A stretch of DNA of 60,591 bases, counting the filler. It is 5 parts of 5 records of this genome, joined end to end, with 100 filler letters (N's around TTAATTAATTAA, not from the genome) between each part and the next. Parts side by side here need not be neighbours in the genome. Positions count along the whole stretch, not along the records: positions 36,636 to 55,186 come from DRR723986_21794; 4 more parts are not named here. One strand, written 5' to 3'. Below, piece by piece: positions 34,522-50,974 of this stretch. Position 1 is the first letter of the stretch, and every line of letters starts with the position of its first letter. Made by a program: the position numbers and the translations under genes. The notes below the pieces were generated by a model. The model saw only the letters and a program-made list of their open reading frames with translations, did no database searches and had not been told where the DNA came from.

Positions 34522-36535
34522 ATGCCGGATTCTACAACATTCTCTTTGCGGGCCGCACTCACCGGCATCCTCCTCGTTGTTGTTTTAACATCACTATCGG
34601 CGCAAGAAATTTCCAGCCCCTGGACGCAGGAGACCTGGGACAGAAATCCACAGGTCGGGACCATACAGGAGCACAATGGACGCGTGTTTGCGGGCACAGA
34701 TAATGCCGGTTTGTTTTACAGCGACGACAATGGCGACAGCTGGATAAACCTGCGTCACAAACTTCCAATGCGAAGAATTTACCACATCCTGAATACAGAA
34801 AACACACTGTTTGCCGGCGGACCAGATGGGGTTTTTCAATCCACGGATGCCGGAGAGACCTGGACCGAAAGCCCGGCAGAACGCGGTATCGCACTCCGGG
34901 AAATTCTCGATATGGTGCAATTTGAGTCCAGCTACTTTGCTGTTAACAACACTTCTCTTTACCGCAGCCAGGGCGAAGACAAGACCTGGCAGAAAGTGGA
35001 ATTATCGGGAATACCAAACGCCGAATATTTGAATAATCTGGAAACACTTAACGACAACATCTATGTGTCCACCAACAAATCTCTGTTCAGGATGGACATC
35101 CCAAGCTCCACCCTCATAGAAATTGAAGCGCCGCTTGACAATGAAATTATCAGCATGCTGAAAGTTGTAAACGGACAGGTATTTTTCGCAGTTACAAGTA
35201 GCGGACCGGCCCTGTATCGTCTGAATATAGCCGCCAATACCTGGGAGAATGTCGGCGATGGTCTACCGGAAGGCGTCTCAGTTTTTGATATGCTTGCGAG
35301 TGACGGCAGATATTTCATTTCCAGCAGCAAAGGGCTGTTTACAAGTCCGGACGCGCTTAACTGGCAAGCGGCTTCCAATTCACTGGATGAGACCGTTTAC
35401 TTAAATGCCACTCTGGCGCAAGACTTTTTGTTGATAGGCACTTTTGGCAATGGCGTACATCGTTATGCAGTTAACGAGCCACAAAATGGATTCACCATAG
35501 TTAACAACAACTTAAACAGCTGGTCCCCAAGTCGCGTTTGGCAGACATCCGAGCGCCTGCTTGTTACAACGCCGGCCCTTGGCACACGCAGCAAGACGCC
35601 CGGCACAAATGAAGCCTGGACGAACATCACCGTTGATGGCACTGAGGCACGGCTGTTCGCCGCGGAAATCTTACCATTCAAAGACGAATGGTTGATGGCT
35701 GCCAGGTATCTGTACAGTTCAACAGATGGAGGACGCAGCTGGCAGTTACCGCAGCCAATTGAAGAGCAGGAGTATATTCAGCATCTACTTGTCACCAATG
35801 ATCACATTATTGGAATGAACAATATGCACGTCATAGAATACGCTGCCGACAAAAGTATTAGCACCCATGCTTTACCAACACAAGGTGTGGCGACTGCAAT
35901 TTCTTCCGTGCTCGCACAAGGCAATGCTATTTTTGTTGGCGATAGCCGGGGAGAACTTTACGTCAGCCATGACCAGGGCCGCAACTGGCAAACGATCGGC
36001 GCGGGACTACCGCGGTTCGCGATCCGGTTCATGTGGGCTAATGCCGACATGATGTTCACCGTGACACAATCGGGCAGTTACCACTCGCGCGACGGCGGAT
36101 TAAACTGGACTGACGCCAACTCTGCAGAACTGGGCTCCGGCAATTTTGTGCGAGATGTTACTGGCTACAAGAACCATGTTTATGTGTTAAGGCGCGACTC
36201 AATATTTGTCTCTGATTCCAGCTTCGATAGCTGGACTAAGCTAAGCAAGGACGGCCTTCCAGATGATGTCAGCCTGACGTCTATTGAAATTTACGAAGGA
36301 CAAGTCTACCTTGCTACCACAGGTGACGGCGTTTTTACGACGAGTCTGCAAGAGGTGACGTCGAGTGTCGAGACTGCACAACTTAAGATTCACAACCTTC
36401 AGATCAGGCCCAACCCTGCCAAACAGAACTCGAAGCTTGTTTACACACTGGAGCAAGCGACACCAGTCGAAATCAATGTCTTTGATCTGCTGGGTAATTC
36501 TGTGCTTGAGCCGATACGCGGCTATCGTGATGCCG
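34522..36535 (+). CDS. T9SS type A cargo, Asp-box beta-propeller (paralog 3, 3' truncated)
   Basis: Same motifs; runs into linker within the CTD. Confidence 0.8.
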
Positions 36536-36635
36536 NNNNNNNNNNNNNNNNNNNNNNNNNNNNNNNNNNNNNNNNNNNNTTAATTAATTAANNNNNNNNN
36601 NNNNNNNNNNNNNNNNNNNNNNNNNNNNNNNNNNN
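36536..36635. other. Artificial contig linker
   Basis: N-run with TTAATTAATTAA. Confidence 0.97.
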
Positions 36636-36647
36636 CACCATCGAGCC
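36636..36647 (-). tRNA. Probable 5' fragment of a further tRNA cut by contig end
   Basis: GGCTCGATGGTG.. resembles acceptor 5' strand plus D-arm start at array spacing. Confidence 0.4.
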
Positions 36648-36661
36648 ATTTTGCAAACAAG

Positions 36662-36748
36662 CGGAAGGCAAGGGATTTGAACCCTCATCACCTCTGTGGT
36701 GGCACGCATTAGCAGTGCGGCCCGGCAAACCGTATCCGGCTACCTTCC
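36662..36748 (-). tRNA. tRNA-Ser(GCT)
   Basis: Acceptor GGAAGGT/GCCTTCC, G73, loop CT-GCT-AA, long V arm. Confidence 0.85.
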
Positions 36749-36759
36749 GTAAAGTTGAG

Positions 36760-36832
36760 TGGACCGAAAGGGAATCGAACCCTTCTCACCGATCTTGCAA
36801 GGATCAGTCGCCCCCTTGGAACATGCCAGCCC
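36760..36832 (-). tRNA. tRNA-Ala(TGC) copy 1
   Basis: G3:U70, loop CT-TGC-AA, A73. Confidence 0.85.
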
Positions 36833-36855
36833 ATTCGTCATCAAACATCACCCAG

Positions 36856-36926
36856 AGGTCCGTCCGGGAATTGAACCCGGTCTTCGTCCATACCACAGAC
36901 GCGTGCTGCCGCAACACTTACAGACC
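36856..36926 (-). tRNA. tRNA-Thr(GGT), atypical acceptor
   Basis: Loop GT-GGT-AT; acceptor GGTCTGT/ACGGACC. Confidence 0.65.
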
Positions 36927-36937
36927 TTGTTAGTCAG

Positions 36938-37010
36938 TGATCGCGGATGGAATCGAACCATCGATCTTCTGGTTGTCACCCAGACGTCTTCGCCGCTGGA
37001 CCACGCGATC
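36938..37010 (-). tRNA. tRNA-Val(GAC)
   Basis: Stem TCTGG/CCAGA, loop GT-GAC-AA. Confidence 0.88.
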
Positions 37011-37023
37011 GCTTTCTAACCAG

Positions 37024-37098
37024 TAGTCGAGATACGAGTCGAACCTACAAAATCACTTGGCTCTCGACCAAGTCGCTTTTCCGTTTGCGTACTCGACC
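37024..37098 (-). tRNA. tRNA-Leu(GAG), short V arm, C33
   Basis: Loop TC-GAG-AG; 7-nt variable region; imperfect T stem. Confidence 0.7.
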
Positions 37099-37105
37099 AT
37101 CGAAG

Positions 37106-37174
37106 TAGCGGATCCGGGGGTCGCACCCGGCGGTCCTGGCTTATGAGGCCTGGCTGAGCACTGGCCCATCCGCG
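37106..37174 (-). tRNA. tRNA-Met(CAT), initiator-like, short D arm
   Basis: C1xU72 mismatch, loop CT-CAT-AA, T-loop TGCGACC. Confidence 0.7.
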
Positions 37175-37192
37175 GTGTTGTTTGAACTGAAG

Positions 37193-37262
37193 TTGCAGGT
37201 CTCGGTATCGAGCCGAGCACACCGACCTCATGACGGTCAGTTGGACACCTGTCGCACCTGCA
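37193..37262 (-). tRNA. tRNA with CAT anticodon (Met or Ile2), atypical
   Basis: Acceptor TGCAGGT/ACCTGCA, loop GT-CAT-GA, T-loop CTCGATA. Confidence 0.65.
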
Positions 37263-37279
37263 AGGTTGTTTTTGAAAAG

Positions 37280-37377
37280 TAGCCAAGGCGAGAGTTGAAC
37301 TCGCACGCCACACTGTCTTCCAATTGCAGTGCACGACATTCTGGTGCCTGCGTGTCTACCGGTTCCACCACTTGGCT
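37280..37377 (-). tRNA. tRNA-Leu(CAG), degenerate anticodon arm and very long V arm (possible pseudogene)
   Basis: Leu-type D arm GTGGTGGAACCGGTAGACAC; 6-nt loop CCAGAA; about 29-nt variable region. Confidence 0.55.
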
Positions 37378-37396
37378 GTTTGGTGTTTGCAAGAAG

Positions 37397-37475
37397 TAGC
37401 GCGGGAGGGAGTCGAACCCACAGACATGTCACGGAGGTTTGAGCTCCGTCGCTTTACCGGTTTGCGTACCGCGCC
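37397..37475 (-). tRNA. tRNA-Leu(CAA), short V arm
   Basis: Stem CGGAG/CTCCG, loop CT-CAA-AC, A73. Confidence 0.85.
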
Positions 37476-37490
37476 GTTTGGATTGAAAGG

Positions 37491-37563
37491 CGTCCCCGAT
37501 CGGATTTGAACCGACGACCTCTTGCGTGACAGGCAAGCGAGCACTCCGCTGCTCCACGAGGAC
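37491..37563 (-). tRNA. tRNA-Asp(GTC)
   Basis: Loop CT-GTC-AC, G73. Confidence 0.9.
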
Positions 37564-37580
37564 TTGTTGTTTGCAAAAAG

Positions 37581-37654
37581 TACGGGCACTCGGATTCGAA
37601 CCGAGACTAACTGGTTGGAAGCCAATCGTGCTAGCCGTTGGACACTACACCCGC
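37581..37654 (-). tRNA. tRNA-Gly(TCC)
   Basis: Loop CT-TCC-AA; G1:U72, A73. Confidence 0.8.
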
Positions 37655-37666
37655 ATATGGTTTGAG

Positions 37667-37740
37667 TAGCTCAGGTGGGACTCGAACCCACAGCATCTCT
37701 GGTTCTAAGCCAAAGTGGTCTGCTAATTGCCTACCGAGCC
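37667..37740 (-). tRNA. tRNA-Leu(TAG), short V arm
   Basis: Loop CT-TAG-AA; 6-nt variable region. Confidence 0.85.
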
Positions 37741-37757
37741 ATGTTGATTGAACTGAG

Positions 37758-37828
37758 TGGAGCACCAGGGAATCGAACCCTGATCTTCTGCTTGCAACAC
37801 AGACGTCTTCCCGTTGGACGAGCGCCCC
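37758..37828 (-). tRNA. tRNA-Ala(TGC) copy 2
   Basis: G3:U70, loop GT-TGC-AA. Confidence 0.85.
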
Positions 37829-37891
37829 ATTTGTTTCGTGTAAGAAGAGAAAGTTGCAGCGTTGCTGGTTCGCCGCTTTCCAACTTTTCAG

Positions 37892-37965
37892 TACCCAGAG
37901 CAGGGATCGAACCTGCAAACACTCGGGTTTAAGCCGAGTCGCTCTGCCGATTGGCGTACCTGGGC
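37892..37965 (-). tRNA. tRNA-Leu(TAA), short V arm
   Basis: Stem CTCGG/CCGAG, loop CT-TAA-AC; 5-nt variable region. Confidence 0.85.
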
Positions 37966-37977
37966 GTTTTCAATAAG

Positions 37978-38049
37978 TAGTCCTGGATGGAATCGAACCA
38001 TCGTTTCCTGCGTGTAAAACAGGTGTCGTAGCCGTTGGACCACAGGACT
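37978..38049 (-). tRNA. tRNA-Val(TAC)
   Basis: Loop TT-TAC-AC. Confidence 0.88.
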
Positions 38050-38069
38050 GTGTTTGTCGATCCGGAGAG

Positions 38070-38140
38070 CACGTCCCCAAGGATTTGAACCCTGACTTAC
38101 TGGTTTGGAATCAGCAGTGCTACCGTTACACCAAGGACGT
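38070..38140 (-). tRNA. tRNA-Trp(CCA)
   Basis: Loop TT-CCA-AA, G73. Confidence 0.88.
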
Positions 38141-38148
38141 GTTTGAAG

Positions 38149-38233
38149 TGGGAACGCAAGGAATCGCACCTCTCGCCGACTACCACACAATTAAAGGCAG
38201 AAGGGTTACAACCTCCCGTGTGGAAACGCTCCC
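38149..38233 (-). tRNA. tRNA-Tyr(GTA)-like, lacking a D arm
   Basis: Acceptor GGGAGCG/CGTTCCC, A73, loop TT-GTA-AC; only 10 nt in place of D arm; long V arm. Confidence 0.7.
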
Positions 38234-38261
38234 AAGTTGTCAGTCAAAACTGACGTTGAGG

Positions 38262-38344
38262 CGGAAGCCGTGGGACTCGAACCCACAACGGTTTGACCCG
38301 CAGCTGTTTTCAAGACAGTGTCCTCATCCGGCCGGGTGACTTCC
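38262..38344 (-). tRNA. tRNA-Ser(TGA)
   Basis: Loop CT-TGA-AA, G73, long V arm. Confidence 0.85.
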
Positions 38345-38365
38345 GAGTGTTGCGATTGCTCGCAG

Positions 38366-38440
38366 TGACGTGAGCGGGAATCGAACCCGCGAACTCCTGG
38401 CTGAGAACCAAGCGATTCTGCCATCAGAATCTACCACGCC
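38366..38440 (-). tRNA. tRNA-Glu(CTC)
   Basis: Loop TT-CTC-AG. Confidence 0.8.
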
Positions 38441-38465
38441 ATAAAGTTGCTTCGTTTGAAGCGAG

Positions 38466-38537
38466 TACCGCATGGGAGTTTCGATCTCCCTCCTGCTGTT
38501 CGAAAGACAGCCGACCTAGCCAGTAGTCGAATGCGGC
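38466..38537 (-). tRNA. tRNA-Glu(TTC)
   Basis: Stem GCTGT/ACAGC, loop CT-TTC-GA, T-loop ATCGAAA. Confidence 0.8.
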
Positions 38538-38545
38538 ATGTAAAG

Positions 38546-38621
38546 GGTGACCAACCGGAATTGAACCGGCGACGAACTCATTCACAGTGAGTCTCTGGAA
38601 ACCAGCACCAGATCTGGCCAC
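38546..38621 (-). tRNA. tRNA-His(GTG), no encoded G-1
   Basis: Loop CT-GTG-AA, C73, acceptor GTGGCCA/TGGTCAC. Confidence 0.85.
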
Positions 38622-38623
38622 AG

Positions 38624-38694
38624 TCGGGTATCAGTGAGTCGCACACTGTCCATGCGTGGTCCCAAACCACACCGCTTACTCCAAGCTATACCCG
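38624..38694 (-). tRNA. tRNA-Pro(TGG)
   Basis: C1:G72, A73, loop TT-TGG-GA; T-loop TGCGACT. Confidence 0.85.
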
Positions 38695-38708
38695 CAATTT
38701 TCATTCAG

Positions 38709-38783
38709 CGCCGAGGACAGGAATCGAACCTGTGTTTGCCTGGTTCAGAGCCAGGTGCAACGACCAGCAGTTGCCGCCTCGGT
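38709..38783 (-). tRNA. tRNA-Gln(CTG)
   Basis: Stem CCTGG/CCAGG, loop CT-CTG-AA, A1xC72, G73. Confidence 0.82.
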
Positions 38784-38801
38784 GTTTCAACTTCCAAGAA
38801 G

Positions 38802-38869
38802 CACTCCGTCCGGGAATCGCACCCGATCAGCGGGCTTCAAAGGCCCACGTCGCGTCTACGCGCCGGAGA
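38802..38869 (-). tRNA. tRNA-Gln(TTG), short/degenerate
   Basis: Loop CT-TTG-AA, 68 nt, two acceptor mismatches, T-loop TGCGATT. Confidence 0.6.
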
Positions 38870-38890
38870 GAATTGAATTGAAAGAACAAG

Positions 38891-38965
38891 CTCCGGCGGC
38901 AGGGATCGAACCTGCGACTAAGCGATTAACAGTCGCCCTCCCGTACCAACACAGGACCCACCGGA
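38891..38965 (-). tRNA. tRNA-Asn(GTT)
   Basis: U1:A72, G73, loop CT-GTT-AA. Confidence 0.88.
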
Positions 38966-38973
38966 ATGTAAAG

Positions 38974-39046
38974 TGGCGGGAGACGGACTCGAACCATCGA
39001 CCTCCAGGGTATGAACCTGGCGAGCTACCAACTGCTCCATCCCGCA
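38974..39046 (-). tRNA. tRNA-Met(CAT), initiator-like
   Basis: TGCGGGATGGAGCAGTTGGTAGCTCG, U1xC72 mismatch, loop TT-CAT-AC. Confidence 0.88.
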
Positions 39047-39047
39047 A

Positions 39048-39118
39048 AGCGCCCAGCGAGAATTGAACTCGCGTCTTCTGCATGGCAAGCAGATGGGTTA
39101 CCACTACACCATGGGCGC
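39048..39118 (-). tRNA. tRNA-Gly(GCC)
   Basis: GCGCCCA/TGGGCGC, U73, loop TT-GCC-AT. Confidence 0.92.
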
Positions 39119-39134
39119 AAAATTGCATCACAAC

Positions 39135-39152
39135 CAAATTGTCAAAGATCAG
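39135..39152 (-). promoter_or_regulatory. boxA-like antitermination element
   Basis: CTGATCTTTGACAATTTG resembles rrn boxA (TGCTCTTTAACAATT). Confidence 0.6.
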
Positions 39153-39173
39153 GGATGCACAAGGCATCTAAAG

Positions 39174-39266
39174 AGCACCGAGTCGGAATTGAACCGACGT
39201 CCCCTCGTTACGACGGAGCGGGCACCGACACGTAGTGTTGGTCGATTGCCGCTAGACGATCAGTGC
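39174..39266 (-). tRNA. tRNA-Thr(CGT) carrying an extra ~20-nt hairpin (possible pseudogene)
   Basis: GCACTGA/TCGGTGC acceptor, loop GT-CGT-AA, 93 nt. Confidence 0.6.
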
Positions 39267-39280
39267 TTGTTGTATTTCAG

Positions 39281-39353
39281 TGGGACCGGTGAGAATCGAA
39301 CTCACATCGTTCGGTTTAAGAGACCGATGCATTACCTTGTCTGCCACAATCCC
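39281..39353 (-). tRNA. tRNA-Lys(CTT)
   Basis: Stem TCGGT/ACCGA, loop CT-CTT-AA. Confidence 0.88.
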
Positions 39354-39380
39354 AAATTGTGTTTTCGTTGTTTCGTTCAG

Positions 39381-39453
39381 TCGGCGTGGCGGGAATCGAA
39401 CCCGCGACCGTCGCCTTATAAGGACGCCGCTCTTACCCCTGAGCTACACGCCG
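39381..39453 (-). tRNA. tRNA-Ile(TAT)
   Basis: Perfect acceptor CGGCGTG/CACGCCG, canonical D and T arms, loop CT-TAT-AA. Confidence 0.88.
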
Positions 39454-39465
39454 ATGCGTAGCAAG

Positions 39466-39538
39466 TGGGGCCGGAGAGATTCGAACTCTCGCCGAACGGA
39501 TTAAAAGTCCGTCATGCTGCCAGTTACACCACAACCCC
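39466..39538 (-). tRNA. tRNA-Lys(TTT)
   Basis: Stem ACGGA/TCCGT, loop CT-TTT-AA. Confidence 0.9.
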
Positions 39539-39577
39539 AAGAATGATCTGGGGTATGCGTTTCAATCGCTGAAGCAT
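39524..39577 (-). CDS. Putative 17-aa peptide MLQRLKRIPQIILGVVV inside the array
   Basis: AAGGAGA SD 8 nt upstream of ATG; ORF ends inside tRNA-Lys(TTT). Confidence 0.4.
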   Translation of the reverse strand: MLQRLKRIPQIILGVVV

Positions 39578-39610
39578 GTTTGGGTTCTCCTTCGTGTTCG
39601 TTGTCGTAAG

Positions 39611-39682
39611 TGGTAGCCCCGAGGATCGAACTCGGCACAACCTCGTTATCAGCAAGGCCTGGACAACCAGCCCTCGACTACC
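39611..39682 (-). tRNA. tRNA-Ile(GAT)
   Basis: Loop CT-GAT-AA, A73. Confidence 0.85.
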
Positions 39683-39735
39683 ATTTGTTTCGTGACGCCG
39701 ACCGTCGTTCCGTCGGCGCATATCTTCCTTGTCAG

Positions 39736-39807
39736 TGGGCCGGGAGGCGCTCGAATCCTCGTCTGCGGTTCTTCAGACCGCCGCTAGACCGTCTCAGCTA
39801 CCAGCCC
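39736..39807 (-). tRNA. tRNA-Phe(GAA), first gene of array
   Basis: Stem GCGGT/ACCGC, loop CT-GAA-GA. Confidence 0.88.
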
Positions 39808-39843
39808 ATGTTGGGTTGTTGGGGTTGTCTCGATTTGGACACG

Positions 39844-39878
39844 AAAAAAGGCTCGATGCCTGCGTGACACCGAGCCTT
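39844..39878 (-). terminator. Intrinsic terminator (attenuator) upstream of array
   Basis: AAGGCTCGGTGTC-ACGCA-GGCATCGAGCCTT 13-bp stem ending in a T6 tract. Confidence 0.8.
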
Positions 39879-39909
39879 CATGTAGAAAGCAATTCGCTTG
39901 AAGCGAGTG

Positions 39910-40068
39910 TCACGTGAGCAATTTCGTACCCATCGAATACATTTCCGGGGAATTACCGGGCAGAAACGTACTGGCTAAGTGTTCATTCACACTGCACCAA
40001 TCGCTACCGCCGAAGGTATGCCCTTCGTGTATCCGTTCGATTCGCGTTTGTTGCTGTTTGGTAAACAT
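39910..40068 (-). CDS. Putative 52-aa leader peptide of the tRNA array
   Basis: MFTKQQQTRIERIHEGHTFGGSDWCSVNEHLASTFLPGNSPEMYSMGTKLLT*; below ORF-track cutoff; stop lies within antiterminator CGTGACAC. Confidence 0.55.
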   Translation of the reverse strand: MFTKQQQTRIERIHEGHTFGGSDWCSVNEHLASTFLPGNSPEMYSMGTKLLT

Positions 40069-40130
40069 CAGAAAGCTCTTACTCGCATTGCTAATTCAAA
40101 ATTGGGTATGACTTGTTGCGTCGGAGGTAA

Positions 40131-40157
40131 TAGACGCTCCTCATTCGGAATGGTTCA
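40131..40157 (-). promoter_or_regulatory. Candidate ECF-sigma promoter
   Basis: TGAACC-N15-CGTCTA about 60 nt upstream of leader ATG. Confidence 0.45.
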
Positions 40158-40374
40158 CGAAGAATCTGGTTTCTTCGGTAGTGGACGAGGCAACGAGTCC
40201 GTTTGGTAATTTCGCGATCATCAGGGACTCGTCACCTCGTCCACTACCCTTTCACACGGAAGTCAAACGAATCCGCCGCCGCATTTGTACTCGCATGATT
40301 TCAGAGACGCCCGAGATCGTACAATGCAATTACGAAGAACCAGACGCAAGACGCAATCCATTGATCAACTCGCG

Positions 40375-40502
40375 ATGAACATGAATCCAAATGAAACGGC
40401 CTTTCGTTCGGCCACGACGGAAGACCGCGACCAGATCCTCTCCGTACACCGTGACGCTTTCGATGAAGAAGGCGAGATCATTTCCTCACTCGTAGCCGAG
40501 AT
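40375..40502 (+). pseudogene. GNAT acetyltransferase 5' fragment
   Basis: MNMNPNETAFRSATTEDRDQILSVHRDAF..., duplicates start of 45158 gene, then diverges. Confidence 0.75.
40397..40502 (+). repeat. 106-bp direct repeat, copy 1
   Basis: 6 mismatches versus 45158-45263. Confidence 0.92.
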
Positions 40503-40538
40503 CCGACGGTACCGTACTCGGCAATGGGGCGACAGCCT

Positions 40539-41453
40539 TCAAGAAACAATTGCGGCAGCGTTTCTGAGCCAGTCGCAAAAGATGCGATTAGCTTCATGGA
40601 ATGCATTTTCTGGACTACAGACAAAATAGTATGCGCGTTCCGACTGAATTGCATCTCGTCCAAGACGAACAAGGCGACCTTGATCTAAATCTGCGCGCAC
40701 AAATGCGAGTGGAACAAGCGCCACTCCTATGCCTGCCTTGGCAGCATCGACCAGCATGTGGAAGTGTTCGAATGTCGGGCCATCCGGGCGTCTCCGTTCT
40801 TGGTCTCTTGCATGAAACCACTCTTCCCAACCCTGCGGACGGGTTGAGTGCTGTAGCAACGGCAGCTCTCCGATAATCGCGTCGGCATCGAAATCCGTTT
40901 CAGCTCCTGCAATTCGATCTGGTGAGACGACCGGGACCAGCTGCTCGTCCATGAACTTTTCCGATTTCAGCCCTGGCCAGTGTCCGTCGCCGAAAAAGAG
41001 TCCAGCATCAATCCAACCGCCTTGCAGATTTGGCGATCTTTCTGGTGACGCAAAATCCAGATCCAAGGTAACAACGTGGAGACTAGTCTTGGGGTGCTGC
41101 TCGATGAAACTTGGTAGCCGAGGAATCAACCAGTAGGTTGCCAAGGAGGGGAGTGCACCAATTCGCAATCGGTGAACTCCTTTATTGCTTATCAGATCCG
41201 TAGTCGCTGATTCAATCCGGTCTAGCGCTGCCGAGAGCGAGTCGCGATACTGAAGTCCTGCATCGGTAAGTTTCAATCTTTGTTTGACGCGTTGGAAAAG
41301 TATCACGCCAAGATCGGATTCAAGCTGAGCCACCTGCTGACTAATTGCACTGGCCGATACGGACAACTCATTTGCAGCCGCGGAAAAGCTCTCATGCCGA
41401 CCCGCAGACTCAAAGGCTCGGATCGCATTTAGGGAAGGTGTCGCTCTTCTCAT
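40539..41453 (-). CDS. LysR-family regulator (GcvA-like)
   Basis: PSLNAIRAFE..RHESFS.AA.EL.VS.SAISQQV; substrate-binding domain. Confidence 0.93.
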   Translation of the reverse strand: MRRATPSLNAIRAFESAGRHESFSAAANELSVSASAISQQVAQLESDLGVILFQRVKQRLKLTDAGLQYRDSLSAALDRIESATTDLISNKGVHRLRIGALPSLATYWLIPRLPSFIEQHPKTSLHVVTLDLDFASPERSPNLQGGWIDAGLFFGDGHWPGLKSEKFMDEQLVPVVSPDRIAGAETDFDADAIIGELPLLQHSTRPQGWEEWFHARDQERRRPDGPTFEHFHMLVDAAKAGIGVALVPLAFVRADLDQGRLVRLGRDAIQSERAYYFVCSPENAFHEANRIFCDWLRNAAAIVS

Positions 41454-41610
41454 CCGTTGCGATTTTCGATCGAGGGAGTCGTTTGTGAGTCAGCAAGGAC
41501 AGCTCCCCCTCTGGCGACCGTGCGAGCAGTATCGCAGCCAGAAAAAGGCGAGGCGGTATCAGGAGATACCACCTATGTTTATCTTGCAGGATTGGCGGAG
41601 TTGCAACCTG

Positions 41611-43179
41611 TCATTGGCTTATACTACGGGACTTTAAGTCATACGTTTCGCCAGCTTTTAAGATCACCGGCTTAAAGCCGTTCTTCCCGGGCTCCAGGTC
41701 GTAAAACGAAACGGCGTTTGGGCCAAGGACTCGGCCGGTGTGGCCTTTTACAACCAGCGCCGTTCGCTCATCAATTCCGATCCCAAGCATCTGTGGATAC
41801 TGTTTCATCAGCTCAAGAAACGGTCCATGTCGATCGCGTTGCAGGAAGTGAGCGTCGATGATAACTCCCTTCAGCAACCCCATGCCACGTGTGTAGCCCG
41901 CGTGGACTATATCCTTGTTGGTAAGCGGGTTACCACGAACCAGAAAATCGCTGGGAACCTGGCAACCGGCGGAACTGCCGCCGACCACGCCGCCTCGCTT
42001 GAGAACTTCCGCGATCAGTTCTTCAACTCGTGTGCCCTCGTAACTGTCCATGAAACGATAGGTGCGACCACCGTCAATCCAAACGCCGGTTGCTGCGTTT
42101 AGCGTCCGAGCGAATTCTTCGCTCTCGTCTGCGATAAGTGGATCATCGGTGTGGAGAGTTGTGTAGTTTGAGTGACCGAGTTCGTGAAGAAGCCCAGCTG
42201 CATACGAGTCCGGTAAATCAGGTAGTTCAAACCGTTGCGCGCTGGGGATACAAACGATATAAGCTTCTTTGCCGCCTGCGATATTGACGAATTCACGCAT
42301 GATGTCTTTGGGGATTCCGGAGCCACCGTGGAGGAATAGCGTCCCGGTAGCAACCTCAGGCGTTGGCGCTGTCATCGGCGGGAACACAGGACGACTGCGT
42401 TCATTCGCCGACCGAACCCAGGAAAACAGGTCGAGTCCGTAAGACGGATAGCTACCTCCGTTGAAGACATCTGGGCATTCGAATGTTCCTCGCTGCTCCG
42501 GCCATCCACCAGCCTCTTGCACTATTGCACTGATGTCCGCGTCACCATAACCCGCGACTCGTCGACCGCTGTGAAAGACTGCTACTGATGAATCAGGAAT
42601 GAGCCAGTGGACCTTCTGAAATGAAGCATCGGATCTGGGCGACGGATTCTTCCCGAAGTGAAAATCTGATTTTACAAATGGTGATTCAAGTCTTCTGGCC
42701 GGGTCATTCTCATCAAGCTCCTTCAGCACTGAAACGGATGATGAGCCAACAGCAATCACACCATTTCGCTGAGTGACATTCTTGAGCAAAGCTAACAGTA
42801 GACGCCTCTGCGCGAGTCCGTTCAACTTCCCTTCGATCCAGATACCACTGGTATTGAGCAGTTGCAGTGACAGCGATTCTGCATCAGTTGGTATCGCCTC
42901 AACGACCGCAACCGAACCTGCTCCGTTTTTCTTCAACCGAGTTTCGGTAACCCTAGCGGCCCCATCGAGATCAATGACAACGACGTTTGGCGAACTTTCC
43001 CCGCACAAATGCAAGAAACACTTTACAGTGTATGTGGCCACGTCTCCGTCGCCGACAACCATTCGCGAACCAACAATTGGTCGTAGATGAGCACTCTTCT
43101 CTGGCAGTTGGGCACTGGCTGTCGCTGCGACAATCGCAAGAAGGATAATGGTAAACAGATTCTGAATTTTGGGGTACAT
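41611..43179 (-). CDS. Exported cyanophycinase-like peptidase (S51)
   Basis: GGSSAG nucleophile, IDAHF.QRDR, GIDERTA; signal peptide. Confidence 0.85.
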   Translation of the reverse strand: MYPKIQNLFTIILLAIVAATASAQLPEKSAHLRPIVGSRMVVGDGDVATYTVKCFLHLCGESSPNVVVIDLDGAARVTETRLKKNGAGSVAVVEAIPTDAESLSLQLLNTSGIWIEGKLNGLAQRRLLLALLKNVTQRNGVIAVGSSSVSVLKELDENDPARRLESPFVKSDFHFGKNPSPRSDASFQKVHWLIPDSSVAVFHSGRRVAGYGDADISAIVQEAGGWPEQRGTFECPDVFNGGSYPSYGLDLFSWVRSANERSRPVFPPMTAPTPEVATGTLFLHGGSGIPKDIMREFVNIAGGKEAYIVCIPSAQRFELPDLPDSYAAGLLHELGHSNYTTLHTDDPLIADESEEFARTLNAATGVWIDGGRTYRFMDSYEGTRVEELIAEVLKRGGVVGGSSAGCQVPSDFLVRGNPLTNKDIVHAGYTRGMGLLKGVIIDAHFLQRDRHGPFLELMKQYPQMLGIGIDERTALVVKGHTGRVLGPNAVSFYDLEPGKNGFKPVILKAGETYDLKSRSISQ

Positions 43180-43244
43180 AAGAACTTTCAATCAGTTGCG
43201 TCAAAATGTAATGGAGAGAATCGAAGAGTTATCCAGCAAAGTGA

Positions 43245-43676
43245 TCAAGTCGCAACAGCCGCGACGAGGGCAATCTCAACCGGCGCATCACGAGGTAAAC
43301 TGGCTACACCAATTGCCGCACGAGCCCCCAGGCAACATTCCCCCAAACGTTCAGTGACCAAGTTCCAGGCGAAGTTGGCCAATGCCGCATGGGAGGTAAA
43401 GCCTCTTGAGGTATTGATGAACACATTAAGCTGTAGGACCAATGAGATGCGTTCGTCTTTTCGAAGGCAATTTCCGGCGGCAACTAGCACGTTGGTTGCG
43501 GCCAGTTCGACGGGCTCGCGATGCAATTCAAGGTCGTCGTCCACGCTCAAAGGGCCGGTGTATTTCAGCTCCACCGCTTCGCGTGGCGTCATCCCGGATG
43601 TGTAGGTGACGTCAGCATGACGAACGGCCGTAATGTACCGGACTTGCGGATTCGGTTGCGCGGTGATGCCGGTCAT
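43245..43676 (-). CDS. RidA/YjgF-like (Atu1372-type) protein
   Basis: YTSGMTP, ARAAIGVASLP.DAPVEI; ATGA overlap with aminotransferase stop. Confidence 0.82.
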   Translation of the reverse strand: MTGITAQPNPQVRYITAVRHADVTYTSGMTPREAVELKYTGPLSVDDDLELHREPVELAATNVLVAAGNCLRKDERISLVLQLNVFINTSRGFTSHAALANFAWNLVTERLGECCLGARAAIGVASLPRDAPVEIALVAAVAT

Positions 43677-44884
43677 GCTCTGTAGAACTCCACCATTTGA
43701 ACGATGCGTTCGGTTGCAGCGACCGCAGCTTTGCGATCTTGCGAATAGTTCAGTCGGAAGCAACTGTTCATTGCCGGAGCGAACTCGGTTCCTGGTGTGA
43801 CCGTCACGCCGGCTTGGTGCCTTAGCAAGCTGACAAACAATTGAAGATCGACTGTCAGTTCAGGCAACTGCGGAAACAAGTAACTTCCGGCTTGCGGCGT
43901 TGCCGTCAAAAATCCCGCATTGCGAAACACGGTCAGCAGGTCGTCGCGAATCTCTTCATGCTCGTTGATACGTTGTTGAATCCAGCCATCAGGTTCGTTG
44001 AACCACGTCTCCAAAGCGGCCTGACTGTACCCCGCAGCTCGCAGAGACACGATCGCCTGAAGACGCTCCATGCGTTCAATCAAAGTTGGCGAACCGATCG
44101 CTACCCCCAAACGAAAACCGCTGAGTGATTCGGTTTTGGATGGCCCCATGATGGTAATCATGCTTTCCGGAGCATGTTCGCTGGCTCGCAGATGCCAATA
44201 CGTCTCACCCGAATACAGCAACCGCGAATACAGTTGATCTACGACCAGAGCCACGCCGTATTGATTTGCCAGCCGAGCGATGGCGTTGATCTTCCCTTGC
44301 GGATAGATTACCCCCGTCGGGTTATTGGGGTTTGAGAATACGAAGACTTTCACGCCCTGCTTGAATGCGTCTTCCAGTCGCTGCATATCGGGGCCGACGT
44401 CCGATGCCTGGCTTTGATACTGAAGCGGAATCGGCACTATTTCACCGCCGAAGAACTGAACCAGTTTACGATTGGCAAAGTAGTCTGGTTCCATAACGGC
44501 CGCCCTGGTGCCGGTGGTCACCGTGGTTCCCAAAGCTAGAAAAAGAGCTCCCTGAGTTCCCGGCGTCAGAATCAGTTCGTCCGTCGCATCAATCGTTCGG
44601 CCCGTGAACTCAGCCAGTCGTGATGCTACCCCATCACGGATTGCCGCAGATCCTCGGTACTCGGTGTAGGCCTGCTGACCGCCGCGGTGAAAGCCTCTCT
44701 GCCATGCTTCCAGCGTTCCCGGCGTCGGCTTAAATGCATCGATATTGCCGTGTGAGAAATCGACGGGCACACCGCCCAAGTATTCGCCCTGCTTGGCGTG
44801 TTCAAAATCTGTCGTGCCGATTCGCACTTCTTGGCCGGGAGCATTCTTGACGCCCAACAATTCAAACTTCTGTTCGAGGTTCAT
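43673..44884 (-). CDS. PLP-dependent class I/II aminotransferase
   Basis: SNPNNPTG, DQLY, GPSKTESLSGFRLG. Confidence 0.9.
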   Translation of the reverse strand: MNLEQKFELLGVKNAPGQEVRIGTTDFEHAKQGEYLGGVPVDFSHGNIDAFKPTPGTLEAWQRGFHRGGQQAYTEYRGSAAIRDGVASRLAEFTGRTIDATDELILTPGTQGALFLALGTTVTTGTRAAVMEPDYFANRKLVQFFGGEIVPIPLQYQSQASDVGPDMQRLEDAFKQGVKVFVFSNPNNPTGVIYPQGKINAIARLANQYGVALVVDQLYSRLLYSGETYWHLRASEHAPESMITIMGPSKTESLSGFRLGVAIGSPTLIERMERLQAIVSLRAAGYSQAALETWFNEPDGWIQQRINEHEEIRDDLLTVFRNAGFLTATPQAGSYLFPQLPELTVDLQLFVSLLRHQAGVTVTPGTEFAPAMNSCFRLNYSQDRKAAVAATERIVQMVEFYRA

Positions 44885-45157
44885 TGGTGTACATCCCCAA
44901 GGACGCTAAATAACCTTTTTGCATTTCCGTCATTTGCTTCATCTTAATGAAACAGTCCGGCGAACCTACTCCCTGAAGAACTTCAAGCTTGATTAGCCCA
45001 GCTTTCGAAGCTCAAGTTGAAAGAGTTAGAGAATCGTCCAATTCTGCTCTCTACTGTTCGTTGCCGAGTACGGTTATGCGACTAGTGGGCGTGTCGTCTG
45101 CAACCAAAAAAACAAGGAACTGTTCGCTGCTGCACCGCTCTCGATCATCCCCAGTAT

Positions 45158-45263
45158 CGGCCCTTCGTTCGGCCACGCCGGAAGACCGCGACCAGATCCT
45201 CTCCGTCCACCGTGACGCTTTCGGTGAAGAAGGCGGGATCATTTCCTCGCTCGTAGCCGAGAT
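45158..45263 (+). repeat. 106-bp direct repeat, copy 2
   Basis: Matches 40397-40502. Confidence 0.92.
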
Positions 45264-45693
45264 GCTCGACGATCCAACGGCAGAACCAATCCATTCATTC
45301 GTTGCCGAGCAAGGCGATGCGATTGTTGCACACGTGCTCTTCACAGCAGTGCGGATCGAAACGCGTGAAGTGTCCGCACAGATACTCGCTCCACTGGCGG
45401 TCGCGTTCGATCACCAAAGAAGCCGGCTCGGCACGAAGCTAGTCAACGAGGCGCTTACTCAACTCGAATCGAAGGGCGTCGCCTTGGTCTTTGTCCTTGG
45501 CTACCCTGACTACTACACACGCTTCGGCTTTGCTCCGGCCGGTACGCAGGGCTTCGACGCTCCGTATCCCATTGCGCCCAAGAATGCGGACGCATGGATG
45601 GTCAAGGAACTACAACCGGGAGCGATCGAAAGCAACGCAGGGACCGTCCGCTGTTGCACCGCTCTCGACCAACCTCAATATTGGCAAGAGTAG
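45158..45693 (+). CDS. GNAT acetyltransferase (YhbS-like), native start apparently lost
   Basis: LAPLAV...Q...LG, VLG.PDYY.RFGF; upstream in-frame extension looks non-homologous. Confidence 0.75.
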
Positions 45694-45718
45694 ACAGGCC
45701 GTAACGGTTAGTTTTCGT

Positions 45719-47542
45719 CTAGTTCCAATAAATCAACGCTTTCTTGAGCGTCCCCTCGCCACGCGAAGAAATGTGGTCCGACATGTACATTCGCCGAACT
45801 TCGGTGAAACCTGATATGACGGGAATACTCTTGTCGGTTACCTGCGTATCCATGAAGCTGAAATCACGCAATCGTGTCAGCTCCGCAAGTTCAGCTATAC
45901 CCGCGTCAGTCACCTGAGTTTCACTGAGACTTAAGTCCGAGAGATTTGTGAGCTTGCCAATAAACTTCATCGCGAGGTCCCCAACCGCGGTTTCATAAAG
46001 AGACAGCGAATCTAGCTTCTTGAGCGGCAAGAGTTTCTCAAAGGCTTCGTCGGTTACCATCGTGCTGTCGAGCACGAGACTTCTAAGCGCAGTCAGCTTG
46101 GCGATTGATGCGAAACAACCACTGGTGACTCTTGTTGAGTCAAGGTCGAGGCATTCTAGCCTATTTAGGTTCTCCAGATGGTTCAGCCCGGCATCGGCGA
46201 TGCCTGTGTATCGCAACCCCAAGCTCTTGAGTTTGTGCAAGCCAGATAAGGCAGCCAAACCAGAATTCGAGATCGGACATGATTCTAAGTCAAGAGACTC
46301 GAGGTTCTCCAAACCGCCAACAAGCATCAGTCCCTCATCAGACACTTGGCTGCGACTAAGGTTCAGAGTTCGAAGCGATGACAATGTCACAAGCTGTTTC
46401 AAATTTTCGTCGGAAAGCAGCTTTGTTGGTAAATCAACTCTTCGCAATTCAGGCAAGTTGGCGAGCATTTTCACACATTCAATTGTCACCTCAGTCCGCG
46501 TAAGGTCGAGTGACTGCAGCTTGGGCATTGACGCAAGATAGGCCACTCCTTCGTCAGAGATTTGTGTACCGGCCAATGAAAGTTCTATCAGAGGCAGTTT
46601 CGAAATTCCTGCGAGATCGTGATTCTTGATTTTCGTTTGCGAAAGATCGACGCATCGAAGCGCTCGCAGATTCGCAAGGTCGCCTAACATTGCCTCTGAA
46701 AACTCGCAATTCTGAAAGCTGACGGTTGCAAGAGTGTCGTTTATTGAAGTGACTTTTGAAAGATGCGACAGTGTCGTTGCATTATCAGTCCGCGTATCCG
46801 GAAGTCCCACTTCCGTAATGACAACGTCGCCTTTTGGAATTGGGGAATGCAGGCTGTTAAAGAATTGAATCTCGCCATCAATATCCGGGAACTGAACATG
46901 TCCCCCCAGACCAAGAATCCACAATGCAACTTCTCGGGGGTCTGCATCAGCGTCAGGCAACGGTCGCAGGTTTTCAACATATTCACGCGCAACCCATCCC
47001 GCCTCTAGGCCATTAAAGGAATCGGCGTGGGAGCGAGCATACTTGCCAAGTATTCTCAGTAGTTCCTTGTCAGCAGCATAGAACGCATTGGTCGCTGAAT
47101 TGATCACCTGATTCTTCTCATTGCTTAACGCATCGAGATAGTCTCCACGGTCAACCCAGTCTGATTGGGTCTCTGAGTTGGGAAAGACCGAAATCGCTTG
47201 CCTTATTGCTGCAACAGAAGCAATCGCCCCAATCTCCTCGAGGGCAACCATCAGTTCCTCAGTATCCAGATCGGATCGGAAGAACGCCCATAGGCCGCCG
47301 TTTCCAATGAGCCCAGAAGCATTCCAAACTGTACGTACTACTTGCTGAGGCCTGGGAAGCTCGTCTTCCGAGGAGTCTGGAATCGCGCCGGCTAGTGCAT
47401 TCACCAGACTGAAATCGTCGCTGTCGTCAAAAAGTTTTCTTAAGACTGGATCCATGGCCTCATCATCAGCTTTACCGGGGGTGTTCGAACATCCTGCGAA
47501 CACCACAGTCACAATCGCTACGAAAGAACAGACACTATGCAT
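45719..47542 (-). CDS. Lipoprotein with DMP19/DUF4375-like domain and leucine-rich repeats
   Basis: FAGC lipobox; NGG...FF...ALEEIGA; LxxLxLxxTxIxD repeats. Confidence 0.78.
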   Translation of the reverse strand: MHSVCSFVAIVTVVFAGCSNTPGKADDEAMDPVLRKLFDDSDDFSLVNALAGAIPDSSEDELPRPQQVVRTVWNASGLIGNGGLWAFFRSDLDTEELMVALEEIGAIASVAAIRQAISVFPNSETQSDWVDRGDYLDALSNEKNQVINSATNAFYAADKELLRILGKYARSHADSFNGLEAGWVAREYVENLRPLPDADADPREVALWILGLGGHVQFPDIDGEIQFFNSLHSPIPKGDVVITEVGLPDTRTDNATTLSHLSKVTSINDTLATVSFQNCEFSEAMLGDLANLRALRCVDLSQTKIKNHDLAGISKLPLIELSLAGTQISDEGVAYLASMPKLQSLDLTRTEVTIECVKMLANLPELRRVDLPTKLLSDENLKQLVTLSSLRTLNLSRSQVSDEGLMLVGGLENLESLDLESCPISNSGLAALSGLHKLKSLGLRYTGIADAGLNHLENLNRLECLDLDSTRVTSGCFASIAKLTALRSLVLDSTMVTDEAFEKLLPLKKLDSLSLYETAVGDLAMKFIGKLTNLSDLSLSETQVTDAGIAELAELTRLRDFSFMDTQVTDKSIPVISGFTEVRRMYMSDHISSRGEGTLKKALIYWN

Positions 47543-48033
47543 GACGGATGCTCTCCAAACAGACAGTCGACAGAAAAGATCTTAGGAGTTCAAAGTCCTG
47601 GACTCAACTAGACACAAATCAGCTCACTACTGAGCCAAAAATAATTAGCAAGAATCCGGAGTCCAGAACACAATCTATCAGTCTCCAATGGAAGCCTCGA
47701 CAAGACAGCCACCACTGCAATCGCCGTTGCTAAGAATCTCACCTTTGCTTTCCGGCGCACAAGCGCTGGCCACCGAGGTAGGCCACCCCCAAACAGTCGG
47801 TAAATCGTCGATGAACCCATCTAGTTGTTCTGCGAAGTCTTCGGCAAACCCAGCGTCATCTTCAAACACTACGAACGAATCAATCCGCGCCAAGTGCCTG
47901 CGATGCTCGCCCAGCCAAAGCCAACGGAGAAGAAGTTAACAGCCAGCGAGTCTTACCTACCCGGTTCACACCCGGACCGACGAAAGAAATCAGTTGGGTA
48001 GGCCGAGAGTCTACGAGTAGCTCCGCACCGAAC

Positions 48034-49497
48034 TCAACTGTCTGCGGGCGGCTTGAAAGATGTTCTAAGTGGAATGATCCGATCGTGTAGCGCTTGCATC
48101 TCATATTGAATGCGGCTGTCGTTTCTCTGCTGAGCTAGCTCGCCAATTGTTGGAAACGGATCGCTTGAGGGCTCATGCGGATTGCGAGATTCCCAGTCGG
48201 TCACGATTGCTTGAGCTTCAGCGTCACGCGACTCACAAAGTGCCGATCGGAGGTCGGTTGTCATCTCTTGGTCATCGCTTTCACTAAGCGCTACAGCAAG
48301 CTCTTTTCTAGACCACGGCAGATCAATTACAGCAAGGGCGGCAGCCATCTCAATTCGATTGATTGGAATATGCGATCTGAGCGATCGGCGAATCAACTTC
48401 ATCGCGGCTGGATGCTGCAACTCCATCGCCAGGAAAGCCGCCTCACTAAGTGAACTGCCCTGGATTACCTCGAATCCTGGTGCTACCGAATCTGTCTCTC
48501 CAATTGAGCACAGCAGCTTTGCCGTCCGAACCCAAATGTATGGCGAAGGAGGCTGTTCATTGGGGTCAATTCGATCAATCAGCGCGAGCAAACTTGGCTT
48601 CCAGTCGTGTATTGCGCTTCTTTGTTCAATAACGTCCAAGGCTACTGACAATGCTCCGCACGGAGGCCCAGACAGTGGGAGCTTGATGCAAGAATCGAGT
48701 TGCGGTGAGCCAAGATCTGCGAGTAGCAACAATGCTTCGGCAGCGTTCTTACCGGAATGGAAAGCGTCTGATAGTTGCTCAGACTTCGTCGCCAGTAGGG
48801 AATCGGCATCAGAACAATAAGTTCCGTCAAACTCACTCAGCATCTGCCAATCTGAGAGGGCGGCAGCGAACAAGGCTTGAACCCCTCGGAATTCCCACTG
48901 TTTGCCAATCCCGTCGAGAACACTAGTCAGTTCCTCAATGGGGCCACGTAAACGAAATTCGCTGTACTCGCCGGACTCTATTAACCCCAATTCCTTGAGC
49001 TCATCGATTCCAATCAATACGCATCGACGAGATGAATACAACTGGCAAATTCGTTTCTCAATAAAGCTAGGCTTCTCAAGCGAATCGAGGTAGTTGATGA
49101 AAAAGTAGGGAGTAAACCAGTCTGCGGTTTCATCAAAAAAATCAACATCGATCTCTTCACCCGTCAGTCGGTGCGTCATGCAGCAACCACGGCCATGGAA
49201 GCGATACTCCCAATTCGAGTTGCCTGGAACCAAGCCGAAGCGAGCCCCTTGGGGATGCCCGAGAGCACCGGCTGCAGCGATCACAGTGGGATCCCCGTTC
49301 AGGCGGAGCTTCATGCTGTCCAACACAAACTTCTGACGTGTCCGATGGCGCACAAGGCACAAATACAGCCAACTCGCCCATGGCGAAAGGTCGAGCGGTC
49401 GATCAACGAAATGCGGTAAATAACGCGTCCATCTATCCTGGCCCCGCAAAACGGCGTTTAACCGTTGCAAAATTTCAGTTGCCGCATCCGAATTCAT
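48034..49497 (-). CDS. Hypothetical protein with W.Y.FHG.GC (DUF6896-like) domain and helical C-terminus
   Basis: WEYRFHGRGCC...GEEIDVDF. Confidence 0.6.
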   Translation of the reverse strand: MNSDAATEILQRLNAVLRGQDRWTRYLPHFVDRPLDLSPWASWLYLCLVRHRTRQKFVLDSMKLRLNGDPTVIAAAGALGHPQGARFGLVPGNSNWEYRFHGRGCCMTHRLTGEEIDVDFFDETADWFTPYFFINYLDSLEKPSFIEKRICQLYSSRRCVLIGIDELKELGLIESGEYSEFRLRGPIEELTSVLDGIGKQWEFRGVQALFAAALSDWQMLSEFDGTYCSDADSLLATKSEQLSDAFHSGKNAAEALLLLADLGSPQLDSCIKLPLSGPPCGALSVALDVIEQRSAIHDWKPSLLALIDRIDPNEQPPSPYIWVRTAKLLCSIGETDSVAPGFEVIQGSSLSEAAFLAMELQHPAAMKLIRRSLRSHIPINRIEMAAALAVIDLPWSRKELAVALSESDDQEMTTDLRSALCESRDAEAQAIVTDWESRNPHEPSSDPFPTIGELAQQRNDSRIQYEMQALHDRIIPLRTSFKPPADS

Positions 49498-49548
49498 CTA
49501 CACAGGATTCCAACAGTCGATACGAAGTAATTTCAACCTCCTCAAATT

Positions 49549-50937: not shown

Positions 50938-50974
50938 AACTGTACGGTCGGTAATTCCGTAGTACTTACAAAAG

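Follow-up and report, generated by a model that had tools for sequence, protein, structure and literature searches.

A predicted ribosome-mediated transcription attenuator in front of supernumerary tRNA arrays of Planctomycetes

We analyzed a stretch of 60,591 nt (hereafter the window) in which parts of five records of one genome are joined end to end with filler; positions 36,636 to 55,186 come from the record DRR723986_21794. In that part, on the minus strand of the window, lies an array of 29 transfer RNA (tRNA) genes packed into 3.1 kb, and immediately before its first gene, tRNA-Phe, is a leader that holds a short open reading frame (ORF), an intrinsic terminator, and a segment that can pair with that terminator in an alternative way. 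Here, we report the anatomy of this leader, its recurrence in front of tRNA arrays of other planctomycetes, and the case for reading it as an attenuator that is controlled by the ribosome. tRNA genes were called with ARAGORN, protein families were assigned with Pfam, and RNA families were sought with Rfam at E<=1 over positions 36000-42000. The features of the locus are as follows.

40158-40129, minus strand: promoter-like motif, GTGAACC (40158-40152), a 15-nt spacer, and CGTCTATT (40136-40129); putative promoter
40076..40080, minus strand: Shine-Dalgarno-like AAGAG, 7 nt upstream of the ATG
40068-39910, minus strand: leader ORF with an ATG start, 52 codons plus TGA (ORF call)
39912-39910, minus strand: leader stop codon TGA, within CGTGACAC at 39914-39907
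39914-39904, minus strand: segment 2, the 5' strand of the antiterminator, consisting of CGTGACAC, a bulged T, and then CG, and including the leader stop codon
39894..39906, minus strand: 5-bp spacer hairpin within the antiterminator loop (hairpin scan and folding)
39861..39879, minus strand: segment 3, the terminator 5' arm (39879-39866) and loop (39865-39861), of which 39872-39863 pair alternatively with segment 2
39844..39860, minus strand: segment 4, the terminator 3' arm (39860-39847) and T6 tract (39849-39844) (terminator scan)
36661..39807, minus strand: 29-gene tRNA array, first gene tRNA-Phe(GAA) at 39807-39735; proposed regulated unit
41453-40539, minus strand: LysR-family gene (Pfam HTH_1 and LysR_substrate)

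The coordinates that the original prediction had given for the ORF, its stop codon, the terminator, the complementary segment, and tRNA-Phe all stand. The terminator hairpin, running from 39879 to 39847, has 14 pairs counting G-U (7 of them G-C) and a 5-nt loop followed by T6; it is listed first among 13 terminator-like sites in 36000-42000, and 36 nt separate its T-tract from tRNA-Phe. Within its 5' arm and loop, GTGTCACG (39870-39863) is the exact complement of the stop-codon octamer CGTGACAC, and the antiterminator that these strands can form, with 8 pairs, a bulged T, and 2 further pairs, fits the pattern of the leader family described below. A short spacer hairpin of variable sequence is likewise present in other leaders. 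The two window folds are nearly isoenergetic by calculation (terminator, -28.3 kcal/mol; enforced antiterminator, -27.7 kcal/mol), as would be expected of a switch. A perfect complement of at least 8 nt to the arm and loop was found within the 111 nt upstream in 54 of 5,000 shuffles, and the octamer in the window, taken alone, is suggestive only. The ORF has no match to a Pfam family, and no riboswitch, T-box, or other known leader was recovered in the Rfam search, the sole match near the leader being a spurious microRNA on an upstream inverted repeat (28.8 bits against a cutoff of 56).

To place the leader in a comparative setting, we assembled a set of 54 distinct leaders, the window's included, from two planctomycete families (those of genomes G002 and G001). 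A search of 401 genomes of the G002 family, with one leader from a relative's array as the query, matched 48 genomes, and about 30 of the matched places are the hairpin itself, approximately 38 nt long and 81-93% identical. In 22 of the 26 loci scanned there, the tRNA-Phe directly after the hairpin heads a run of tRNA genes; the remaining four also bear the leader, three of them together with a tRNA-Phe-like gene that carries an insertion and is not called by ARAGORN. At L034 (~1560-1650) and L045 (~1570-1660), the tRNA-Phe after the leader has ~26 extra nucleotides inserted in the region of its D arm. The corresponding search in the G001 family, with the window leader plus tRNA-Phe as the query, matched 130 of 301 genomes, the matches being to the tRNA, and in nine genomes also to the terminator, with none to the body of the ORF. 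It returned 30 loci, namely, 27 arrays headed by tRNA-Phe and three solitary tRNA-Phe genes. The hairpin is present in 26 of the 27 array loci, the exception being L081, in which the stop-codon motif CTGACAC, ~67 nt upstream of tRNA-Phe, is joined straight to CGGG and the T-tract; it looks as if the terminator 5' arm and loop had been deleted, leaving a natural variant that lacks the terminator. A comparable hairpin is not found before three of four solitary tRNA-Phe genes: the hairpins at L062, L069, and L079 are all weak (ΔG of -4.7 to -8.1), and none was found at L083, a fourth solitary locus that was retrieved separately. A strict pattern of the main sequence type, which covers that type only and gives no measure of absence elsewhere, was found in 4 of 401 genomes across the phylum (control, 0), all four of which read as members of the G001 family. 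The T-tract begins 7-30 nt before tRNA-Phe in many relatives, and the gap is 7-36 nt in most leaders; there is thus no room for a separate promoter, and the first tRNA would be made only by read-through. Beyond the assembled genomes, the metagenome contig L135 (1-1256) recovered with the leader peptide as the query, is nearly identical to the window from the promoter-like motif to tRNA-Phe, its homology starting just upstream of that motif, and parts of the module of promoter, leader, terminator, and tRNA-Phe occur in 22 public runs from 18 studies. Some genomes have the leader hairpin twice (G269:C20:108935-108974; G057:C48, two places), an indication that they contain at least two leader-headed arrays each.

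The 54 leaders were aligned from 21 nt before the stop codon to 9 nt into the T-tract (alignment A2). The four solitary tRNA-Phe loci, L081 (which lacks the hairpin), and L067 (which has an open frame without an ATG) were left out of it, and L034, L038, L045, and L049 were inspected apart from it. The leaders in the alignment share ancestry, and the counts given for them are not counts of independent events. Each helix was compared with slid pairings and with 500 shuffles scored for covariation. In the terminator helix, 95.6% of the cells are paired (slid pairings, 23-58%) and 9 of 11 pairs have changed on both sides, a score reached in 0 of 500 shuffles. The antiterminator (columns 28-40 with 75-85) has 84.7% of its cells paired, as opposed to 20-45% for slid pairings, and 7 of its 11 pairs have changed on both sides (25 compensatory cells), again matched by 0 of 500 shuffles. 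The two helices meet at column 79, whose partner is column 34 in the antiterminator and column 96 in the terminator: the three columns change together, L059 and L063 having G-C-G and L065 and L070 having U-A-U, and in L073 only the antiterminator partner follows the change of column 79. In comparative terms, one strand that covaries with two alternative partners is the signature expected of a real switch. It is the recurrence of these covarying helices, along with an ORF whose stop codon lies in the antiterminator, across 54 leaders that carries the switch beyond the suggestive octamer of a single sequence. Both the ORF and the covarying helices, which the original prediction had led one to look for in homologous leaders, therefore recur in front of arrays.

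A third helix became apparent in an alignment of 20 leaders of the main family (A3), in which nucleotides 14-21 of the ORF (codons 5-7) pair with the 3' half of the antiterminator strand. This 1:2 helix has 74.4% of its cells paired, versus 32-41% for slid pairings; it includes 18 compensatory cells, and its score was not attained in any of 500 shuffles. When transcripts without ribosomes were folded after truncation just before the terminator 3' arm, 17-21 of the 22 nt around the stop codon paired with the 5' part of the ORF in L026, L044, L076, and L023, the naked leader of these four main-family members being predicted to form a long rod; the corresponding folds of L064, L037, and the window have the antiterminator in its place. 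RNAalifold, applied to 20 full leaders, returned the terminator and a 4-bp helix only, and neither the antiterminator nor the 1:2 helix was among its output. On the alignments and the predicted folds, most members of the family appear to possess the complete four-segment logic of a trp leader.

An ATG-initiated ORF with its stop codon 50-67 nt before the T-tract was found in 54 of 55 hairpin-bearing leaders. This stop falls within the antiterminator strand or at its 5' edge; 46 of the 54 leaders use TGA, 6 use TAA, and 2 use TAG. The stop is kept in subfamilies whose helices have quite different sequences (e.g., L021, L054, L056, L057, and L078), and in L059, where the TGA has been lost, the ORF ends two codons later. 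To define the reading frame, we considered stops 44-72 nt before the T-tract, a range of 28 nt, and chose the one that closes the longest ATG ORF. In that frame, an ATG lies 26-44 codons upstream with no intervening stop in 47 of 54 leaders, in comparison with 1 and 2 leaders for the other frames and 3.0 in shuffles; the most common length is 32-33 codons. A Shine-Dalgarno-like tetramer occupies positions -18 to -4 in 25 of 48 leaders, as against 4 of 48 in the control interval of -48 to -34. The ORF of L135 differs from that of the window by a 15-nt insertion and three substitution sites that read as nonsynonymous, so that the frame is kept, at 57 codons, and the peptide is changed. In 33 columns of 35 ORFs, the mean pairwise difference at the three codon positions is 0.52, 0.47, and 0.55, that at position 3 exceeding that at position 2 (P = 0.006). 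The peptide is thus scarcely constrained, as would be expected if the act of translation matters and its product does not.

The original prediction also proposed a pan-codon leader that would sense the loss of almost any tRNA; in a stronger version of this proposal, coverage of all or almost all codons would be under selection, so that the loss of any tRNA is sensed. Our recount of the window leader agreed with the 20 amino acids and 35 distinct codons on which that proposal drew, and the occurrence of 20 of 20 amino acids in 52 codons has a probability of ~0.016-0.035 against windows of real proteins or random draws. Diversity in the family is also slightly high, with 15.9 distinct amino acids per peptide where 15.1 are expected (n = 48; Wilcoxon P = 0.003, the rows not being independent). 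However, the excess amounts to less than one residue per peptide, the number of distinct amino acids per member varies between 11 and 19, the window having 20, and no codon class is enriched. In composition, the peptides look like translations of GC-rich sequence free of constraint, Cys, Met, Pro, and Arg being overrepresented, and for 12 of the 52 window codons (Arg CGA/CGG, Tyr, Cys, Ser TCC/TCG, Thr ACG, and others) the array encodes no tRNA that could read them under conservative wobble rules. Any ORF without codon bias would, moreover, sense many tRNAs by default. We accordingly give up selection for codon coverage as part of the account and regard it as improbable. No amino acid shows an enrichment that could be linked to the array, and no run of regulatory codons tied to it was found in the leaders. 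A Phe-specific attenuator, which we also considered, is ruled out because Phe codons are not enriched (4.6% versus a background of 4.2%).

Upstream of the ORF, the leaders share the motif GAAC[CA]-N14-18-TCT, which 46 of 54 leaders have no more than 130 nt upstream of the ATG (1.1 expected from shuffles); its typical form is GTGAACC-N15/16-CGTCTAA. The copy at 40158-40129 is the sole strict match in the 60.6 kb of the window, and a looser form, TGAACC-N16/18-(C/A)TCT(A/C)A, has only three matches there. This motif is further found before the window's solitary tRNA-Asn (51123-51095, minus strand) and two solitary tRNA-Phe genes (L069 and L079), because of which we read it as what may be the tRNA-type promoter of these planctomycetes, not specific to stress. 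A resemblance of GAACC...CGTCTAA to promoters of extracytoplasmic function (ECF) sigma factors was noted and set aside since the motif stands before solitary tRNA genes, and a scan with the sigma-70 consensus found no promoter-like site in 36000-42000. From the motif, we infer a start site about 7 nt downstream of it and about 55 nt before the ORF. Placing the start from the ends of RNA contigs (40080-40105; a DNA contig extends to 40146) was dropped, as these ends do not fall at one place. Of the 22 public runs, which contain 24-46% of the sampled words, six are RNA libraries. In three metatranscriptomes, contigs span the leader at 39740-39889 (X18), 39780-39889 (X17), and 39747-40175 (X22), positions lacking coverage being uninformative, and some bridge the terminator into tRNA-Phe, which is no more than compatible with read-through transcripts.

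The array itself has the character of a spare set in one relative. In G558, an Rfam tRNA search (74 matches) followed by ARAGORN on the matched regions gave 56 dispersed tRNAs spanning all 20 amino acids in addition to an array of 20, and all 20 array anticodons are duplicated outside the array. For the window, a second tRNA-Asn(GTT) lies outside the array. The designation of the array as a backup, which came with the original prediction, thus holds in G558 and for the window itself is plausible only. An early indication from BLAST that the array tRNA-Phe is the only copy of the cell (single copy in four of five genomes) was discarded in view of a divergent, dispersed tRNA-Phe in G558.

Taking these lines together, we consider it likely that the leader is a ribosome-mediated transcription attenuator of the leader-peptide, trp type that gates a supernumerary tRNA array, and that these bacteria probably make their spare tRNAs only when ribosomes run slowly. 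Transcription would start from the tRNA-type promoter, and polymerase would meet the intrinsic terminator just before tRNA-Phe. A lead ribosome that keeps pace with it would reach the stop codon and cover 39914-39904, whereupon the terminator would fold and the array would stay off. The footprint size of a ribosome, on which this masking argument draws, is established, and the stop codon is so placed that a terminating ribosome should mask segment 2. If the ribosome lags or stalls earlier in the ORF, be it from a shortage of tRNA, a translation inhibitor, or tRNA cleavage, segment 2 would be free to capture the terminator 5' arm, and polymerase would enter the tRNA genes. In most family members, the pairing of codons 5-7 with the antiterminator strand would bring about termination when the leader is not translated at all. 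What is sensed would be the general speed of translation, there being no sign of tuning to particular codons or to all of them. Of the attenuator as originally predicted, the terminator within the unit, its covarying competitor, and the ORF that stops at the antiterminator have stood up, and the sampling of all codons has not. The idea that absence of translation turns the array on fares differently across the family: the 1:2 helix predicts the off state in the four main-family leaders folded, and the naked fold of the window is the antiterminator. It is also conceivable, as a tentative extension, that the arrangement forms a self-correcting circuit of tRNA supply, in which slowed decoding opens the array, new tRNAs restore the speed of leader translation, and the array closes again; triggers that we considered are starvation, antibiotics, and cleavage of tRNAs by anticodon nucleases of phages or competitors.

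Several observations weigh against an attenuator of this kind. The window ORF, at 52 codons, is an outlier in the family, its body has no DNA homolog in the 3, 401, and 301 genomes searched, and its candidate for the 1:2 helix sits in the 5' untranslated region, where the lone change in L135 is uncompensated. Seven of the 54 leaders (L019, L029, L070, L073, L082, L084, and the window) fall outside the range of 26-44 codons, L067 has an open frame without an ATG, the choice of frame by the longest ORF slightly favors frame 0, and kinship among the leaders deprives the counts of independence. The RNA contigs do not give strand, ends, or level, and carry-over of DNA into RNA libraries is possible. 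Codon periodicity is weak, conservation is mostly at the level of nucleotides and structure, and the regulatory codon runs that are normal for leader-peptide attenuators are absent. The last three points, together with the naked rod of the four main-family leaders folded, which could serve as a binding platform, would also suit a switch that is real but set by an effector other than the ribosome (a metabolite, guanosine tetraphosphate [ppGpp], uncharged tRNA, or an RNA-binding protein), the ORF being incidental or secondary. Such an effector would nevertheless leave unexplained the ATG at 26-44 codons in the one frame, the maintenance of a stop codon, be it TGA, TAA, or TAG, at the antiterminator, and the Shine-Dalgarno-like motifs and the in-frame indel of L135; nor does the leader match an Rfam family other than the spurious one mentioned above. 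We judge this explanation unlikely, if the least so of the alternatives.

Another way to read the leader is as an independent small gene or small RNA with a terminator of its own, the array being transcribed by leak-through and the alternative pairing having no regulatory part. In L135, the module does precede a lone tRNA-Phe, the following 750 nt holding no other tRNA gene, and in L020, L054, and L024 the T-tract and tRNA-Phe are 82-130 nt apart, a distance that would accommodate a promoter. Against this, the antiterminator covaries, in three ways at one column; the gap is short in most leaders; the peptide is not conserved as a protein and has no Pfam match; and the module goes with arrays, not with three of the four solitary tRNA-Phe genes. 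An independent gene is therefore, in our estimation, very unlikely. Least probable of all, and already contradicted by the comparative record, is a coincidence in which the LysR unit upstream ends in an ordinary terminator and both the ORF and the 8-mer arose by accident: the shuffles do yield such a complement at the frequency given above and a 52-codon ORF is unremarkable, but the LysR gene ends 660 nt upstream, its relatives have no adjoining array, and the whole module recurs beside arrays in dozens of genomes in differing contexts. The system of leader and array is, in sum, well supported by comparison, and a ribosome-controlled attenuator remains the reading we prefer, its standing resting on sequence and predicted folds.

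The best-known leader-peptide attenuators are those of enterobacterial amino acid operons (trpL, hisL, pheL, leuL, thrL, and ilvL). With trp-type leaders, the planctomycete element shares a promoter-proximal short ORF, a terminator before the first regulated gene, a mutually exclusive 2:3 antiterminator, a masking stop codon, and, apparently in most family members, a 1:2 pairing predicted to cause termination without translation. It differs from them in that its targets are tRNAs rather than enzymes, that it has no regulatory codon run and would respond to overall speed rather than to one amino acid, that its ORF is longer (~33 codons; 52 in the window), and that it is found in Planctomycetes. 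A decision between terminator and antiterminator that is tied to the status of tRNA also recalls the T-box riboswitches; unlike these, the leader has a conserved ORF and no Rfam T-box match in the region searched, and the antiterminator bulge of the window is 1 nt, which we take not to be the T-box bulge. Closest in signal, by our analogy, are the ribosome-mediated attenuators that respond to translation inhibitors, such as those of Bacillus subtilis bmrB-bmrCD (PMC4191407) and vmlR (PMC9226507). Their ORFs too reportedly lack codon runs specific for an amino acid, a slowed ribosome blocks the terminator, and the output eases impaired translation; they differ in controlling resistance proteins, several of them through drug-specific arrest peptides, where the planctomycete output would be a set of tRNAs.

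Closest in physiology is the trn operon of Anabaena sp. PCC 7120, a long tRNA array under the repressor TrcR (PMC8421152 and PMC10272220). According to these articles, that array is likewise long and supernumerary, silent by default, and induced by translational stress, but it is held by a protein repressor on direct repeats of the promoter. PMC10272220 makes no use of "attenuat," "terminator," or "leader," and PMC8421152 none of "terminator" or "leader." The TrcR motif, as given there, has one match in the window (37267-37286, plus strand; 0.61 expected by chance), which lies inside the array on the opposite strand and is at chance level, and none at the leader promoter. From the literature available, silencing and induction of a spare array are known for this one organism only, by way of a promoter repressor. 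Full-text literature searches, together with word look-ups in the main text of a survey of tRNA arrays, returned no attenuator before tRNA genes, in agreement with the initial impression that the mechanism is undescribed for tRNA arrays. The planctomycete leaders would thus apply a classical mechanism to a new class of target, with more than 50 diverged natural examples and three covarying helices, and would, if the reading is correct, be the first attenuator known to control tRNA genes. An attenuator of this type requires ribosomes to trail RNA polymerase at a short distance, and its conservation would accordingly amount to genetic evidence for coupled transcription and translation in Planctomycetes. 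It raises the questions of how bacteria sense a general shortfall in decoding and of whether spare arrays serve as insurance against tRNA-targeting toxins and translation inhibitors, and the leader family could offer a compact natural reporter part for translation speed.

On the genomic side, 730 nt of the minus strand without a called gene lie between the LysR-family gene and the array, and relatives of that gene have no adjoining tRNA genes. The closest of them, with 97% protein identity, has 45078-40358 in common with the window and then diverges, with no array within the 414 nt beyond the point of divergence; as the homology ends at 40358, array and leader together would appear to be an insert that varies between relatives. 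Three genomes with LysR relatives carry arrays elsewhere, each headed by tRNA-Phe and each with a hairpin and T-tract a short way before it. Directly upstream of the promoter-like motif is an imperfect inverted repeat of ~24 pairs (40174-40251), which neither L135 nor the L001 relative possesses; it may be a terminator of the LysR unit with an insulating role, or it may mark the border of an insertion. Within the array, some tRNAs called by ARAGORN are 94-99 nt long (39173-39266 and 37279-37377), and such long or insertion-bearing genes may contain small inserted elements; the gaps at 38263-38344 and 37088-37172 hold subthreshold Rfam tRNA-like matches (tRNA-Sec, 30 bits; Tymo_tRNA-like, 29 bits), which may be decayed tRNA genes. 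The GC content of the window ranges from 0.39-0.43 (1-12 kb) to 0.64-0.69 (56-60 kb), and the relative with the 97%-identical LysR protein differs on both sides of 45078-40358; the contig would appear to be either a mosaic or one that bears islands.

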